This document shows, piece after piece, positions 1 through 5,017 of a DNA stretch of 5,017 nucleotides (position 1 is its first letter; every line of letters begins with the position of its first letter). Made by a program: the position numbers and the translations under genes. Source of the DNA: a virus (taxonomy: Duplodnaviria > Heunggongvirae > Uroviricota > Caudoviricetes); IMG/VR virus record IMGVR_UViG_2585427728_000001; one strand, written 5' to 3'. A model generated the notes under the pieces. It did no database searches, was not told the origin of the DNA, and worked only from the letters and a program-made list of their open reading frames with translations.

Positions 1-351
1 ACTGTATGTCACGGGCATACAGGAAAAGACATCATGCTCGGTAAAACGTATACCAAAGCAGAATGCAAAGCCCTCCTGAATAAAGACCTTGCCACGGTCG
101 CCAGACAAATTAACCCGTACATCAAAGTCGATATACCGGAAACAATGCGCGGCGCTCTTTACTCATTCGTTTACAACGTGGGTGCTGGCAATTTCAGAAC
201 ATCGACGCTTCTTCGCAAAATAAACCAGGGCGATATCAAAGGCGCATGTGATCAGCTACGTCGCTGGACATATGCTGGCGGTAAGCAATGGAAAGGGCTG
301 ATGACTCGCCGTGAGATTGAGCGTGAAGTCTGTTTGTGGGGGCAGCAATGA
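1..351 (+). CDS. R: Phage endolysin, phage-21/RrrD-type lysozyme (T4-lysozyme-like, GH24); 5' end lies upstream of the window
   Basis: Frame 1 is open from nt 1 and reads [48 protein letters not shown]...[13 protein letters not shown], ending at TGA 349-351. From memory this is collinear with the C-terminal ~115 aa of phage 21 R / E. coli RrrD lysozymes. The N-terminal SAR/catalytic region is outside the window, so only the C-terminal part is seen. Confidence 0.9.
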
Positions 352-815
352 GCAGAGTAACTGCGATTATCTCCGCTCTGGTTATCTGCATCATCGTCTG
401 CCTGTCATGGGCTGTTAATCATTACCGTGATAACGCCATTACCTACAAAGCCCAGCGCGACAAAAATGTCAGAGAACTGAAGCTGGCGAACGCGGCAATT
501 ACTGACATGCAGATGCGTCAGCGTGATGTTGCTGCGCTCGATGCAAAATACACGAAGGAGTTAGCTGATGCGAAAGCTGAAAATGATGCTCTTCTGCGGA
601 AGCTTGATAATGGTGGCAGGGTGCTCGTCAAAGGAAAATGCCCTGTGCCATCCTCTGCCGAAACCTCCAGCGCCTCCGGCATGGGCAATGATGCCACCGT
701 CGAACTCTCTCCAGTTGCTGGACGAAACGTTCTCGATATCCGGGACGGAATTATCCGCGACCAAACAGCACTGAGAACGCTTCAGGAATACATTAGGACG
801 CAATGCCTTCGATGA
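348..815 (+). CDS. Rz: Rz i-spanin (inner-membrane spanin subunit)
   Basis: ATG at 348 overlaps the endolysin stop (ATGA). The product [23 protein letters not shown]... has an N-terminal transmembrane segment followed by charged, coiled-coil-like sequence ([50 protein letters not shown]) and a C-terminal cysteine. It sits directly after the endolysin and carries an embedded +1-frame lipoprotein gene, the defining Rz/Rz1 architecture. The ORF track starts at GTG 336; ATG 348 is preferred. Confidence 0.9.
568..774 (+). CDS. Rz1: Rz1 o-spanin (outer-membrane lipoprotein spanin subunit), embedded in the +1 frame of Rz
   Basis: 68-aa ORF lying entirely inside Rz in a different frame. The N-terminus [21 protein letters not shown] is a signal peptide with a lipobox (VAGC), followed by a proline-rich stretch [11 protein letters not shown] typical of Rz1. 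AGGAG lies about 7 nt upstream of the ATG at 568. The N-terminus resembles lambda Rz1 (MLKLKMML...) from memory. Confidence 0.85.
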
Positions 816-990
816 TAGCGATAATTTTACTCATCATCCTTCACATCTGGCTCTGTAGACAGGGTGGTGATCACTTCTGGAGTAAATCCAGATTAAACAT
901 CTCATTGCTGATGCTTGATATTGAGCATCTGGCGCGCAGTAAGGGGCTGCGTTGAGATAAGAGCCAGTTCATTACAAATACCAGGATTTA

Positions 991-1015
991 GCCTCGCATT
1001 CGCGGGGCTTTTTAT
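991..1015 (+). terminator. Putative rho-independent terminator downstream of the lysis cassette
   Basis: GCCTCGC-ATTC-GCGGGGC forms a 7-bp GC-rich stem (one G-U pair) with a 4-nt loop, immediately followed by TTTTTAT. It lies about 175 nt after the Rz stop and about 140 nt before the Rha start. Confidence 0.45.
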
Positions 1016-1157
1016 ATCTGAATTTCACAGCGCATCTCACGCGCATATTAACGAGAGCCTTTCAGTAAGCGAGCCTGAGAAATGCCGTTATAGGTGGCGA
1101 CCTCTCTCGGGCGGCTTTTCTGTGAGACAGGCTCACTTTCTAAAAGGTAAAGACGCT

Positions 1158-1682
1158 ATGAATAATCATTCAGTTATTCCAGCCTTCGACTTCCGAGAAA
1201 TGGTGCAAGCCAAAAACGGAGAGGTCGTTACCACATCCAGAAAAATTGCCAAGTACTTCGGCAAGCGACACGGTGATGTTCTCAGGAAAATCGAGCAGGT
1301 TAAGGCTGATTGCTCGCGTGAGTTTAGCCAACGCAATTTTGCGTCGGCTGATTATATCGATGAGCAGGGCAAGGTTCGCCCGATGTACAGCCTGACGAAA
1401 GATGGCTGGATCATGGTTGTGATGGGGTTCACCGGGAAAGCTGCTGCGGCAATCAAGGAGAGCTATATCGCAGCATTCAACTGGATGGCAGAACAACTGA
1501 GCCGCCGCATGGCAATTGGCGAAGAAATGCAGCACCGCTACGCCATCAAAGAAACACGCTCAAAGCTGAAAGGTACGATCGGCAGTCGGTTAATGAACGA
1601 ACGGAAGAAAGAGAAGCGTGTCCTGGCTGTCGAGCATGAATACATCTTGCAGGTGACACAGCCTGAACTGCTGATTAATTGA
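1158..1682 (+). CDS. rha: Rha-family phage regulatory protein (Phage_pRha domain)
   Basis: 174-aa product starting MNNHSVIPAFDFREMVQAKNGEVVTTSRKIAKYFGKRHGDVLRKIEQ...MYSLTKDGWIMVVMGFTGKAAAAIKESYIAAFNWM. The TTSRKIAKYFGKRHGDVLRKI and LTKDGW..MGFTGK..A..K..YI.AF motifs are characteristic of the Rha family. ATG 1158 follows AAAGGTAAAG. The longer ORF in the track (from 915) is a TTG-initiated extension that runs through the terminator hairpin and is rejected. Confidence 0.85.
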   Translation: MNNHSVIPAFDFREMVQAKNGEVVTTSRKIAKYFGKRHGDVLRKIEQVKADCSREFSQRNFASADYIDEQGKVRPMYSLTKDGWIMVVMGFTGKAAAAIKESYIAAFNWMAEQLSRRMAIGEEMQHRYAIKETRSKLKGTIGSRLMNERKKEKRVLAVEHEYILQVTQPELLIN

Positions 1683-1984
1683 AGATGTCATTACAAAGCC
1701 TATCTACGGGGGGCTTGATAATGGCTTATACCCTGCACGGGATAACTTAACTGATATCCCTTTTAACGGATAAAGGTATTCAAGCCTGACACATCATGCG
1801 CTGTATCGTCGCCGTATTCCCGCATTAACCATGACCGTAGCCTGACGGGGAATTCCTTCTGCGTGAGTGTGCGGGAATAATCAAAAACGATGCACACCGG
1901 GTTATTAACGCGTCAACTGAACGCGGGGTTGCTCTTCATGTCAGCCAGTCCGGTGCAGGGGTAGAAGAAACCGGACGTTATGGT

Positions 1985-2395
1985 TTAGTGTGGAAACATT
2001 TGTGATGTGCTCTGTATGTTTTCAGTAAAGAGTAATGAATTATCAAAGGTATAGTAATATCTTTTTTGTTCGTGGATATTTGTAACCCACCGAAAAACTC
2101 CTGCTTTAGCAAGGTTTCTTCTGTATTCCTGAAATGTGATCTCTCTGGATTTCAGCTTATTAGAGGTCGTTTCTATAAGATGCCTATCCTTTGAAAATTT
2201 GACAGACACAATGTTTTTTAGGCCCTTTAATAACACTGTATTATCATTTTTTAATACAATATGAACATTCTCTGTGGCTAAATAGTAAATGTAATGTGAG
2301 ACATTGTGACGTTTTAGCTCAGAATAAAACCATTGATAGTTTAAATCGTTTCGAACTTTATCAAATATTTGTTTAAAAATGACTACCTGATCCAT
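1985..2395 (-). CDS. DUF1398-family prophage protein (YdfO/YbcV-like), AT-rich cargo gene
   Basis: Minus-strand ORF. The preferred start is ATG at 2395 ([27 protein letters not shown]...), preceded by GGAAGG about 8 nt upstream, giving 136 aa. The track start at 2410 has no Shine-Dalgarno sequence. GC content is about 32% against about 58% in the terminase region. Assignment to the YdfO/YbcV (DUF1398) family is from memory of E. coli cryptic-prophage proteins and is unverified. Confidence 0.7.
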
Positions 2396-2454
2396 AGATA
2401 AACCTTCCATGTGATATGAGGGGGGGCGTAGTCTGCACGATTATCTAAATTGCT

Positions 2455-2688
2455 TCAATCTGGTCTGATCTGTTTTCTGAGCAATTCAGTAATGTCACTC
2501 TTTTCTTTGTTTGCTTCAGGAGAAACTCTTTTTTCTGAGCACAGTCTCCGGCGGCAGGCTTCAATGACCCAGGCTGAGAAATTCCCGGACCCTTTTTGAT
2601 CAAGAGCGATGTTAATTTGTTCAATCATTTGGTTAGGAAAGCGGATGTTGCGGGTTGTTGTTCTGCGGGTTCTGTTCTTCGTTGACAT
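2455..2688 (-). CDS. DUF3950-family small protein (YnfO/YlcI-like), predicted ribbon-helix-helix-like DNA-binding protein
   Basis: 77-aa minus-strand ORF: MSTKNRTRRTTTRNIRFPNQMIEQINIALDQKGSGNFSAWVIEACRRRL.... A basic N-terminal tail, a short beta-strand (NIRFP), helix (NQMIEQINIALDQ), G-x-S/N turn (KGSGN) and second helix (FSAWVIEACRRRL) fit the ribbon-helix-helix pattern. It resembles E. coli prophage YlcI/YnfO proteins from memory. Confidence 0.8.
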   Translation of the reverse strand: MSTKNRTRRTTTRNIRFPNQMIEQINIALDQKGSGNFSAWVIEACRRRLCSEKRVSPEANKEKSDITELLRKQIRPD

Positions 2689-2857
2689 GAGGTTGTCCCG
2701 TATTCAGTGTCGCTGATTTGTATTGTCTGAAGTTGTTTTTACGTTAAGTTGATGCAGATCAATTAATATGATACCTGCGTCATAATTGATTATTTGACGT
2801 GGTTTGATGGCGTAGATGCACGTTGTGACATGCAGATGATAATTATTATCATTTTGC
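2689..2857 (-). promoter_or_regulatory. AT-rich region expected to hold the promoter of the minus-strand DUF3950/DUF1398 genes; no -35/-10 assigned
   Basis: This is the only non-coding sequence upstream (minus-strand sense) of the 2688 start codon. It is AT-rich (for example TTGATGCAGATCAATTAATATGATACC, GATAATTATTATCATTTT). The same segment corresponds to the lambda right-end sequence just before cosQ. No confident promoter hexamers could be assigned by eye. Confidence 0.3.
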
Positions 2858-3070
2858 GGGTCCTTTCCGGCGATCCGACAGGTTACGGGGCGGCGACCTC
2901 GCGGGTTTTCGCTATTTATGAAAATTTTCCGGTTTAAGGCGTTTCCGTTCTTCTTCGTCGTAACTTAATGTTTTTATTTAAAATACCCTCTGAAAAGAAA
3001 GGAAGCGACAGGTGCTGAAAGCGAGCTTTTTGGCCTCTGTCGTTTCCTTTCTCTGTTTTTGTCCGTGGAA
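2858..3070. other. cos: Lambda-type cohesive end site cos (cosQ 2858-2864, cosN 2888-2899, cosB about 2900-3070)
   Basis: The sequence ...GGGTCCTTTCCGGCGATCCGACAGGTTACG|GGGCGGCGACCTCGCGGGTTTTCGCTATTTATGAAAATTTTCCGGTTTAAGGCG... matches the joined right and left ends of phage lambda as recalled. GGGTCCT is cosQ, GGGCGGCGACCT is the 12-nt cohesive end, and the following ~170 bp up to the Nu1 start correspond to cosB (Nu1 R-sites and IHF site), whose sub-sites were not mapped individually. Confidence 0.9.
2888..2899 (+). other. cosN: cosN 12-nt cohesive-end sequence GGGCGGCGACCT (terminase nicking site)
   Basis: Exact match to the lambda left cohesive end, preceded by the lambda right-end sequence GATCCGACAGGTTACG. 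Confidence 0.9.
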
Positions 3071-3076
3071 TGAACA

Positions 3077-3622
3077 ATGGAAGTCAACAAAAAGCAGCTG
3101 GCTGACATTTTCGGTGCGAGTATCCGTACCATTCAGAACTGGCAGGAACAGGGAATGCCCGTTCTGCGAGGCGGTGGCAAGGGTAATGAGGTGCTTTATG
3201 ACTCTGCCGCCGTCATAAAATGGTATGCCGAAAGGGATGCTGAAATTGAGAACGAAAAGCTGCGCCGGGAAGTTGAAGAACTGCGGCAGGCCAGCGAGAC
3301 AGATCTCCAGCCAGGGACTATTGAGTACGAACGCCATCGACTTACGCGTGCGCAGGCCGACGCACAGGAGCTGAAAAATGCCAGAGACTCCGCTGAAGTG
3401 GTGGAAACCGCATTCTGTACTTTCGTGCTGTCGCGGATCGCAGGTGAAATTGCCAGTATTCTCGACGGGATCCCCCTGTCGGTGCAGCGGCGTTTTCCGG
3501 AACTGGAAAACCGACATGTTGATTTCCTGAAACGGGATATCATCAAAGCCATGAACAAAGCAGCCGCGCTGGATGAACTGATACCGGGGTTGCTGAGTGA
3601 ATATATCGAACAGTCAGGTTAA
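3077..3622 (+). CDS. nu1: Terminase small subunit Nu1 (lambda gpNu1-like, winged-HTH cosB-binding protein)
   Basis: 181-aa product MEVNKKQLADIFGASIRTIQNWQEQGMPVLRGGGKGNEVLYDSAAVIKWYAERDAEIENEKLRREVEELRQ.... This is the same length as lambda gpNu1 and essentially collinear with it as recalled. It has an N-terminal helix-turn-helix, sits immediately downstream of cosB, and its 3' end overlaps the start of gene A by 26 nt as in lambda. Confidence 0.97.
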   Translation: MEVNKKQLADIFGASIRTIQNWQEQGMPVLRGGGKGNEVLYDSAAVIKWYAERDAEIENEKLRREVEELRQASETDLQPGTIEYERHRLTRAQADAQELKNARDSAEVVETAFCTFVLSRIAGEIASILDGIPLSVQRRFPELENRHVDFLKRDIIKAMNKAAALDELIPGLLSEYIEQSG

Positions 3623-4835
3623 CAGGCTGCGGCATTTTGTCCGCGCCGGGCTTCGCTCACTGTTCAGGCCGGAGCCACAGACCGCCGTTGAATGGGCGGA
3701 TGCCAATTACTATCTCCCAAAAGAATCCGCATACCAGGAAGGGCGCTGGGAAACACTGCCCTTTCAGCGGGCCATCATGAATGCGATGGGCAGCGACTAC
3801 ATCCGTGAGGTGAATGTGGTGAAGTCTGCCCGTGTCGGTTATTCCAAAATGCTGCTGGGTGTTTATGCCTACTTTATAGAGCATAAGCAGCGCAACACCC
3901 TTATCTGGTTGCCGACGGATGGTGATGCCGAGAACTTTATGAAAACCCACGTTGAGCCGACCATCCGCGATATTCCGTCGCTGCTGGCGCTGGCTCCGTG
4001 GTATGGCAAAAAGCACCGGGATAACACGCTCACCATGAAGCGTTTTTCCAATGGTCGTGGCTTCTGGTGCCTGGGCGGTAAAGCGGCAAAAAACTACCGT
4101 GAAAAGTCGGTGGATGTGGCGGGTTATGATGAACTTGCTGCCTTTGATGAGGATATTGAACAGGAAGGCTCTCCGACGTTCCTTGGCGACAAACGTATTG
4201 AAGGCTCGGTCTGGCCAAAGTCCATCCGTGGCTCCACGCCCAAAGTGAGAGGCACCTGCCAGATTGAGCGTGCAGCCAGTGAATCCCCGCATTTTATGCG
4301 TTTTCATGTTGCCTGCCCGCACTGCGGGGAGGAGCAGTATCTTAAATTTGGCGACAAAGAGGCGCCGTTTGGCCTCAAATGGACGCCGGATGACCCCTCC
4401 AGCGTGTTTTATCTCTGCGAGCATAATGCCTGCGTCATCCGCCAGCAGGAGCTGGACTTTACTGATGCCCGTTATATCTGCGAAAAGACCGGGATCTGGA
4501 CCCGTGATGGCATTCTCTGGTTTTCGTCATCCGGTGAAGAGATTGAGCCGCCGGACAGTGTGACCTTTCACATCTGGACGGCGTACAGCCCGTTCACCAC
4601 CTGGGTGCAGATTGTCAAAGACTGGATGAAGACGAAAGGGGATACGGGAAAACGTAAAACCTTCGTGAACACCACGCTCGGTGAGACATGGGAAGCGAAA
4701 ATTGGCGAACGTCCGGATGCTGAGGGTAAGCGACTCGTCAGAACCGTATTGATATTTACTGAGAGCTCAGATCAACTTTCCAGGGCAACAGATCGCGTAC
4801 CCGGTTTGCCGGCCAGTCCTGGATATGTTCAATGA
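3597..4835 (+). CDS. A: Terminase large subunit gpA, C-terminally truncated by an IS66-family insertion (probable pseudogene; A-derived part 3597-4724, last 36 codons read into the IS)
   Basis: MNISNSQVNRLRHFVRAGLRSLFRPEPQTAVEWADANYYLPKESAYQEGRWETLPFQRAIMNAMGSDYIREVNVVKSARVGYSKMLLG... follows lambda gpA (641 aa) as recalled, including the Walker-A-like VKSARVGYSK, up to ...GETWEAKIGERPDAE (codon 376). Lambda then continues VMAERKEHYSAP..., whereas here the frame reads GKRLVRTVLIFTESSDQLSRATDRVPGLPASPGYVQ and stops. The nucleotide sequence from 4726 onward is unrelated to lambda. Confidence 0.92.
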   Translation: MNISNSQVNRLRHFVRAGLRSLFRPEPQTAVEWADANYYLPKESAYQEGRWETLPFQRAIMNAMGSDYIREVNVVKSARVGYSKMLLGVYAYFIEHKQRNTLIWLPTDGDAENFMKTHVEPTIRDIPSLLALAPWYGKKHRDNTLTMKRFSNGRGFWCLGGKAAKNYREKSVDVAGYDELAAFDEDIEQEGSPTFLGDKRIEGSVWPKSIRGSTPKVRGTCQIERAASESPHFMRFHVACPHCGEEQYLKFGDKEAPFGLKWTPDDPSSVFYLCEHNACVIRQQELDFTDARYICEKTGIWTRDGILWFSSSGEEIEPPDSVTFHIWTAYSPFTTWVQIVKDWMKTKGDTGKRKTFVNTTLGETWEAKIGERPDAEGKRLVRTVLIFTESSDQLSRATDRVPGLPASPGYVQ

Positions 4836-5017
4836 CGTAACGCAGCCACTTTTCTGGCTCCACATTGTTCAGACGGCATGTGCCGATCAGCGAGTACAAC
4901 ACCGCCGCATGTTCACCACCGCTGTCGGAACCCGCGAACATCCAGTTTTTCCGGCCTACGGCCACTCCCCGTAAGGCGTTCTCTGCGATGTTGTTGTCGA
5001 TTTCCACCCAGCCATTA
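4726..5017 (-). mobile_element. IS66-family insertion sequence, one terminus plus the 3' end of its transposase gene; the element continues beyond the window
   Basis: Homology to lambda A ends at 4724-4725. The new sequence starts GTAAGCGACTCGTCAGAACCG..., and GTAAGCG is recalled as the typical start of IS66-family terminal inverted repeats. The minus-strand ORF 4756-5017 encodes an IS66 TnpC-like C-terminus. The boundary is uncertain by about 2 nt, and the other IS end and any 8-bp target duplication are outside the window. Confidence 0.85.
4756..5017 (-). CDS. IS66-family transposase (TnpC-like), C-terminal fragment; the 5' part of the gene lies beyond the window end
   Basis: The minus-strand frame is open to the window edge (...NGWVEIDNNIAENALRGVAVGRKNWMFAGSDSGGEHAAVLYSLIGTCRLNNVEPEKWLRYVIEHIQDWPANRVRDLLPWKVDLSSQ, stop at 4756-4758). 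The NxAEnALRxxAVGRKNWxFAGSxxGGExAAxxYSLI motif is typical of IS66-family transposase C-termini. The M at 5007 in the track is an artefactual GTG start. Confidence 0.9.
   Translation of the reverse strand, partial: NGWVEIDNNIAENALRGVAVGRKNWMFAGSDSGGEHAAVLYSLIGTCRLNNVEPEKWLRYVIEHIQDWPANRVRDLLPWKVDLSSQ

Follow-up and report, generated by a model that had tools for sequence, protein, structure and literature searches.

The results of our analysis suggest that the window, by which we mean the whole 5,017-nt stretch of DNA examined here, probably contains the cos-Nu1 end of a very recently decayed, 12.5-kb DLP12-like prophage remnant, for which the expected outcome is cutting in trans and recombination. 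The locus thereby belongs to an ordinary and already known kind, that of recently decayed DLP12-like prophage remnants. The chromosomes of E. coli ET881 and SW071610 both match the window at 100% identity. In ET881, two exact lambda att cores (GCTTTTTTATACTAA), 12,516 bp apart, delimit the remnant, which is situated between ybhC and ybhB-bioA. This is the classical lambda attachment site. From left to right it comprises an integrase pseudogene, a DUF1364 fragment, rusA, ylcG, quuD and a porin gene, followed by essD, rrrD, Rz, Rha, DUF1398, ylcI, cos, nohD and A', and finally an 818-bp IS66 fragment, a scrap of gene A (23-28 bp, beginning at lambda 2168), a tail-fibre 3' end, tfa and a diguanylate cyclase gene. 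The integrase pseudogene lacks its N-terminus, xis is deleted, and genes for head, tail, replication and immunity are all lacking, none of the 19 features annotated in the remnant being a replication gene. The earlier note had described the locus as a prophage with a broken large terminase; gene A is indeed broken, but this description understates the decay, given that all morphogenesis, replication and immunity genes are absent too.

Upstream of cos, the window covers the lysis and moron genes of the remnant. The 3' part of a phage lysozyme gene of the rrrD type (1-351, plus strand; Pfam Phage_lysozyme, E = 1.4e-33; rrrD in the ET881 annotation) is followed by an Rz-type lysis (spanin) gene (348-815, plus strand; Pfam Phage_lysis, E = 6e-31; lysis protein in the ET881 annotation) and by a gene for a Rha-family regulator, a moron in the bor position (1158-1682, plus strand; Pfam Phage_pRha, E = 2e-28; likewise named in the ET881 annotation). 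Two genes on the minus strand, a ybcV-type DUF1398 gene (1985-2395; Pfam DUF1398, E = 1.7e-46; again named in the ET881 annotation) and a YlcI/YnfO (DUF3950) gene (2455-2688; Pfam DUF3950, E = 5e-21), are placed like ybcV and ylcI, respectively, in DLP12 of K-12. No Rfam families were detected in the window, and a promoter/terminator scan of it returned nothing over the shuffled expectation except a hairpin after Rz. Classification of the element as a PICI or phage satellite was considered and rejected, as it has neither a functional int nor a replication module and carries lysis genes. The remnant contains the essD-rrrD-Rz lysis genes and tail-fibre remnants, its sole packaging gene is an ordinary phage Nu1, and packaging-redirection functions (Rpp or capsid-size genes) are absent from it, with the TerS being plain phage Nu1.

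An apparently complete lambda-like prophage of 46,844 bp occupies the same attachment site in HS30-1, and the ET881 element corresponds to this prophage minus 13.9 kb and 21.25 kb and plus an IS fragment. Relative to HS30-1, the 13.9-kb deletion takes in everything from the 5' part of int up to and including ninX, and the 21.25-kb deletion extends from A codon 377 through most of stf; among the DNA lost is the O/P region. The 8193-bp middle block common to the two differs by merely 3 mismatches and 1 gap, and positions 1-4725 of the window show no differences at all from the HS30-1 prophage. These comparisons indicate that the remnant is derived from a full prophage resembling the one in HS30-1, independently of DLP12 in K-12, making the resemblance of the two a convergent one. 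As reconstructed from them, a lambda-like prophage at the lambda attachment site of ET881 would have received an IS66-family element in gene A, after which IS-associated and other deletions would have taken out 21 kb with the head and tail genes and another 14 kb with the early genes. Given zero substitutions over 4.7 kb, the null expectation for the 765-bp cos-Nu1 segment is simply that it be unmutated, and, as the window does not differ here from an intact prophage, no functional explanation has to be invoked for the persistence of cos and Nu1: they are unmutated because the decay is recent, and not because they have been maintained. A selection-based account of this persistence was considered and set aside in light of the zero differences from an intact prophage. 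The much older DLP12 of K-12, which also has a near-intact cos and nohD, leaves room for some maintaining force, and gene conversion from incoming phages or selection may be seen as candidates for it.

DLP12 presents the same arrangement, namely rusA-ylcG-quuD-porin-essD-rrrD-Rz ... ybcV-ylcI-cos-nohD-truncated A-tail fibre assembly, with the order ending in ybcV-ylcI-cos-nohD-aaaD'-tfaD, where aaaD' is 309 nt of A. The cos-Nu1-A' DNA of DLP12 is 98.3% identical to that of the window, the respective NohD proteins are 1 aa apart, and the DLP12 cos is near-intact, having cosQ, cosN, I2, R2 and R1 as in lambda and one change in R3. The two elements differ in that DLP12 retains only the 309 nt of A and has borD listed, whereas 1129 nt of A followed by the IS66 end are present here. 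Furthermore, the ET881 remnant lies at lambda att (ybhC/ybhB), and neither its insertion site nor its descent is that of DLP12.

Alignment to the lambda genome (NC_001416) places a lambda-type cos at positions 2858-3076 of the window, with position 2888 corresponding to lambda nt 1, which bears out the location that had been proposed for it. Over the 241 nt of the cos segment, identity to lambda is 97.5% (E = 2e-113), and hence a chance origin of this match is not an issue. The minimal functional cosmid insert, which extends from lambda 48442 to 178 (Sippy et al. 2016, PMC4856287), falls wholly inside window 2827-3064. Initiation of packaging depends on cosB and cosN, and its termination on cosQ and cosN (Feiss et al. 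2015, PMC4669245). The termination sub-site cosQ (GGGTCCT; 2858-2864, plus strand) is the same as lambda 48473-48479. The cosN site (CGGGGCGGCGACCTCG; 2886-2901, plus strand), taken as defined by Murialdo and Feiss (2022, PMC9026076), is also the same as in lambda and contains the 12-nt cohesive-end sequence GGGCGGCGACCT with symmetric flanks of 2 bp on each side; the lambda alignment predicts nicks at 2887/2888 in the top strand and at 2899/2900 in the bottom strand. The intrinsically bent I2 segment (bp 18-50 of lambda; PMC4856287), which spans 2905-2937 on the plus strand, is identical to its lambda counterpart. So is the critical TerS binding site R3 of cosB (AGGCGTTTCCGTTCTT; 2937-2952, plus strand), which corresponds to lambda bp 50-65 and in which the contacted base pairs 55-63 (PMC9026076) are all as in lambda. 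The stretch from lambda 48487 to 72 shows zero differences in the window, and the spacing between cosN and R3 is that of lambda. The I1 region with the IHF site between R3 and R2 (2953-2995, plus strand) has a single change, while R2 (2996-3011, minus strand; lambda bp 109-124), which is inverted with respect to R3 and R1, shows one transition at 3005 (CTGTCGCTTCCTTTCT in the window against CTGTCGTTTCCTTTCT in lambda). R1 (3037-3052, plus strand; lambda bp 151-166) is again identical.

In all, cos of the window deviates from reference lambda by 48486 T>C (window 2871), 73 A>G (window 2960, in the I1 region), 118 A>G (window 3005, in R2) and the lack of G138, which shortens the R2-R1 spacing by 1 bp. 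Eight deposited lambda-like phages were aligned over cos for comparison. G138 is absent from all eight, C at lambda 48486 is found in seven of them, and G73 is shared by three, namely Kati, PhiR63_1 and PhiR29_1. The R2 variant of the window also recurs in PhiR63_1, where it is combined with G73 and an identical Nu1; that the variant is tolerated is suggested by this deposited genome, provided that the phage is viable. Each of these deviations is, on this comparison, natural variation in phage genomes, and the cis-acting site as a whole appears fit for use by a terminase with lambda specificity. The transition in R2 could weaken initiation or raise the dependence on IHF, since it is equivalent to bp 56 of R3, a position known to matter in R3; mutations in R3 are severe, and the same change is milder in R2 or R1 (PMC9026076).

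The small terminase subunit Nu1, or nohD (3077-3622, plus strand), is undamaged, as had been supposed, with 181 aa and a full-length match to Pfam Phage_Nu1 (1-164/164, E = 4e-101). Apart from the single residue that separates it from K-12 NohD, it differs by 2 aa from lambda Nu1 and by none from that of PhiR63_1, and its residues 1-74 are identical to lambda, in keeping with a lambda-type wHTH. The disruption of gene A is equally clear: the coding match ends after codon 376, identity to the intact A of HS30-1 stopping at 4725, and the truncated gene (3597-4725, plus strand) encodes codons 1-376 of the 641 in gpA. The resulting fragment keeps the ATPase domain (Pfam GpA_ATPase, 3-237/247) and just 2-59/294 of GpA_nuclease; it thus retains the Nu1-binding N-terminus and is devoid of the nuclease and the portal-binding C-terminus. 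The ET881 annotation labels gene A a pseudogene, and a functional lambda terminase (Nu1 + gpA) is, by its predicted products, not encoded here, as the large subunit is incomplete. Directly at the gene A breakpoint, an IS66-family terminal sequence (GTAAGCG...) begins at 4726 and opens an ISCro1-like end (GTAAGCGACTCG... together with the C-terminus of the transposase; 4726-5017, minus strand; Pfam DDE_Tnp_IS66 and IS66_C). It is 99.8% identical to an ISCro1-family copy in strain TB354, starting from the end of that copy; of the IS, 818 bp are all that ET881 retains.

The behaviour of such a locus during infection by a lambda-like phage is best considered in the light of DLP12. Recombination between lambda and DLP12 is frequent, and 10 of the 19 sequenced junctions lie beside cos, which De Paepe et al. 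(2014, PMC3945230) credited to breaks made by terminase; moreover, nu1, R and Rz of DLP12 are functional as replacements in lambda (PMC3945230). The homology of the window to lambda amounts to about 2.1 kb at roughly 98% identity (lambda 48216-48502 + 1-1839). Terminase of a superinfecting phage of lambda specificity would be predicted to assemble with IHF on R3-I1-R2-R1 and then to nick the chromosomal cosN of the remnant, a step that is expected from the sequence identity and the DLP12 precedent. The consequent double-strand break, in conjunction with the ~2 kb of ~98% homology, might then promote recombination with the infecting phage, so that alleles of the remnant (the lysis genes, the moron block, cos and Nu1) would exit the cell in viable recombinant phage genomes. 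This combination of cutting in trans and recombination appears likelier than packaging of the remnant by a helper. Translocation from the same cos would proceed rightward through A', the IS, tfa and the diguanylate cyclase gene and then into ybhB-bio-uvrB-moa, where it is predicted to stall for want of a terminating cos and thus to be a dead end.

The latter consideration bears on the alternative that the orphan cos seeds one-directional, in-place packaging of ybhB-bio-uvrB-moa, giving rise to rare transducing particles. The cos is oriented toward bio, as in a lambda lysogen, and initiation requires cosN and cosB alone (PMC4669245). However, a terminating cos is absent: a search of 61.6 kb downstream recovered no second cosQ-cosN, with only the 12-mer by itself being matched, with 1-2 mismatches. 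Furthermore, uncut DNA blocks the joining of tails (PMC6687093), lateral transduction is, according to the current literature, not performed by cos phages (PMC12829572), and there is a single chromosomal copy of cos with no in-place replication. This process is accordingly an improbable one, to which we would assign a small chance. It can be likened to the classical 'doc' particles of lambda or to a cos version of lateral transduction. Heads filled from the cos of an unexcised prophage were reportedly described by Sternberg and Weisberg in the 1970s. In a more general form, it is conceivable, though a little less probable still, that orphan competent cos sites act as fixed entry points for terminase, leading to one-directional packaging or strong break-stimulated recombination of adjacent host genes; if true, such entry points would be the cos-phage counterpart of lateral transduction, which is said not to exist.

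The interpretation offered in the earlier note was that the remnant and flanking host DNA constitute a helper-dependent mobilisable element, packaged into infectious particles by a lambda-like helper. The part of this proposal that concerns the action of lambda terminase in trans stands well enough, in that the cos sub-sites look competent for a lambda-type terminase and precedents are known, namely Sp4/Sp14 of O157 (PMC2669165) and the cos-bearing island EcCICFT073, which is moved by lambda and phi80 (PMC6092414). Also in its favour, both lambda att cores are intact, and Int/Xis of a helper might excise the remnant. The packaging of the remnant itself is another matter. Cos terminases require a second cos to finish packaging, and protruding uncut DNA blocks tail attachment (PMC6687093, PMC4669245); the remnant has one cos only, with none following within the above 61.6 kb. 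Islands packaged from cos depend on replication of their own for concatemers (PMC6092414), whereas the 12.5-kb remnant has no replication module and an int pseudogene only and hence would not form the concatemers needed for cos packaging. With neither a terminating cos nor concatemers, there is no support for helper packaging of the remnant. A helper integrated next to the remnant offers little remedy, as the computed cos-to-cos spacings for integration at the attL or attR of the remnant would be about 33-35 kb or about 26 kb, with the lambda att position being assumed in this estimate. Feiss and colleagues reportedly established in 1977-79 that stable lambda virions need roughly 37-38 kb as a minimum. 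There is, in addition, no resident helper in ET881: megablast and distant blastn searches (reaching roughly 65-70% identity) found no other Nu1/A-like locus in ET881 or SW071610.

The precedents themselves point in the same direction when examined more closely. In Sp4 of O157:H7 Sakai, nu1 is broken by ISEc8, and the terminase that packages the prophage is most likely the one encoded by Sp14 (Asadulghani et al. 2009, PMC2669165), the cos of which is identical to that of Sp4; packaging in trans by a co-resident terminase was proposed (PMC2669165). The idea of trans packaging of a terminase-defective prophage is thus already published and not new. Sp4 resembles the present locus in being a lambdoid prophage with an intact cos and with an IS66-family element disrupting one of its terminase genes, but it is nu1 and not A that is broken, and the prophage is near full-length, having kept the lambda-type organisation of morphogenesis genes. 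Its DNA is amplified by regional replication from a neighbouring prophage, whereas the 12.5-kb remnant has neither replication genes nor such a partner. Islands of the EcCICFT073 type are likewise small chromosomal elements with a lambda-like cosN that depend on a lambda or phi80 helper (PMC6092414, PMC6739421, PMC9026076). Unlike the remnant, however, they possess an integrase, an inducible regulator and a primase/replication module and form concatemers, so that, like Sp4, EcCICFT073 is amplified before packaging; their cosB is also unlike that of phages and is read via Rpp, as opposed to the true phage cosB, lysis cassette and dead integrase seen here. The tandem-prophage assay and cosmids are comparable in that a resident cos is recognised in trans by a helper terminase (PMC4669245, PMC4856287), but their substrates have two co-oriented cos sites at a packageable distance or are multimeric plasmids, in contrast to the single cos of the remnant.

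Phyletic distribution also provides no sign of spread of the remnant. Of the 5426 complete E. coli genomes, 4606 (~85%) carry lambda-type cos-Nu1-A DNA, at a median of 2 places per genome. The exact A'/IS66 junction that is diagnostic of the broken allele is found in just two of these 5426, ET881 and SW071610, and is missing from the GTDB representative genomes and the metagenome contigs; the int'/DUF1364' deletion junction is found in no viral contigs. One IMG/VR contig, L019, contains the A'/IS66 junction. The left 8.3 kb of L019 match a Rac-like remnant of SW071610 at 100% identity and the corresponding locus of ET881 at 99.9%, and its 29 differences from the ET881 att-lambda locus are all clustered at the shared essD/rrrD repeat. 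The possibility that the broken allele had turned up here in a second prophage was rejected, as the contig consists of Rac-like sequence joined across this repeat; L019 is probably an assembly chimera or a local recombinant, and not independent evidence. Taken together, a single cos, a length of 12,516 bp, the absence of replication genes, an integrase pseudogene, and the lack of a resident helper and of any sign of spread argue against a helper-dependent mobilisable element. The remnant is not a packageable unit, and its mobilisation in this manner is very unlikely.

Selection of cos, Nu1 and an ATPase-only gpA for interference with incoming lambda-like phages, which could draw on the intact Nu1, on the Nu1-binding N-terminus and whole ATPase domain of the nuclease-less gpA' and on the similar retention of cos and nohD by DLP12 of K-12, can hardly be entertained, given that the zero differences from an intact prophage make selection unnecessary for intactness, that the ATPase fragment is not conserved in DLP12 with its A of only 309 nt, that lambda grows on K-12 despite nohD and even acquires it (PMC3945230), and that one chromosomal cos would presumably be far too little to titrate terminase when phage copies number in the hundreds. 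The mechanisms that might be envisaged for interference of this kind are a dominant-negative subunit poisoning terminase or a decoy cos.

With respect to the reading favoured here, that of a young remnant open to cutting in trans and recombination, an intact cos and Nu1 beside a broken A are the default condition of such a remnant and are also seen in DLP12 of K-12. A cos by itself is insufficient for mobilisation, which also calls for a second cos at a packageable distance or for replication to concatemers. Transducing particles, if they were to arise by initiation at orphan cos sites, would be relevant to gene flow, as these sites are near-universal in E. coli; nothing in the present data points there. 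The realistic exit for the DNA of the remnant is, instead, recombination into a viable phage. Thus, the locus represents a further example of lambdoid prophage decay, in which the remnants stay recombinationally 'live' for incoming phages.

The remnant as a whole spans 12.5 kb (15807-28337 of L001, the ET881-type locus, in which the window occupies 20001-25017), is bounded at both ends by exact lambda att cores and occupies the classical attB between ybhC and ybhB. As cargo it carries a porin gene 3' of quuD and, immediately internal to attR, a gene for a sensor diguanylate cyclase, both of which are also found in the apparently complete prophage of strain HS30-1. Just beyond the window lies a scrap of gene A of 23-28 bp (L001 25544-25566), which begins at lambda position 2168 and separates the IS66 fragment from the 3' end of the tail-fibre gene. 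Its presence there demonstrates that, after the IS had inserted, no fewer than two distinct deletions took place. A close relative of this prophage in a different strain, TB354, carries a complete ISCro1-family IS66 element inserted in the Rha gene (7158-10700 of L014, the TB354 locus), which points to the late-region block as a recurrent target of the ISCro1-type IS66 family.

The truncated gene A continues into the IS end as a fusion ORF of 412 aa (window 3597-4835), which retains the entire gpA ATPase domain followed by a 36-aa tail contributed by the IS. As this ORF overlaps Nu1 in the same manner as A does in lambda, late transcription extending that far would result in its translation. 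Upstream, directly 3' of the Rz gene and 5' of the Rha gene, a G+C-rich stem-loop with a T run behind it (window 990-1009) resembles, by its sequence, an intrinsic terminator; it could insulate the lysis cassette from Nu1 and the moron block, except where Q-modified polymerase transcribes past it.

The viral contig IMGVR_UViG_3300029458_000131 (8306-13496) presents the cos-Nu1-A'-IS66 block fused to a Rac-like remnant, the latter being that of ET881 and SW071610 (LysR-ChaC-MFS-hokD-DUF1367 and onwards). All its mismatches are grouped at the essD/rrrD repeat common to both remnants. Most probably the contig is a chimera that arose during assembly; recombination between the Rac-like and cos-Nu1-A' remnants is a possible alternative.

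Comparison of window 2790-3904 with the K-12 cryptic prophage DLP12 (L016, 8547-9663) reveals that DLP12 and the remnant at the lambda attachment site, which formed independently, both terminate in cos-nohD-truncated A joined to tail-fibre-assembly DNA. In both, the morphogenesis block appears to have been deleted convergently, with the lysis-cos-Nu1 segment spared.
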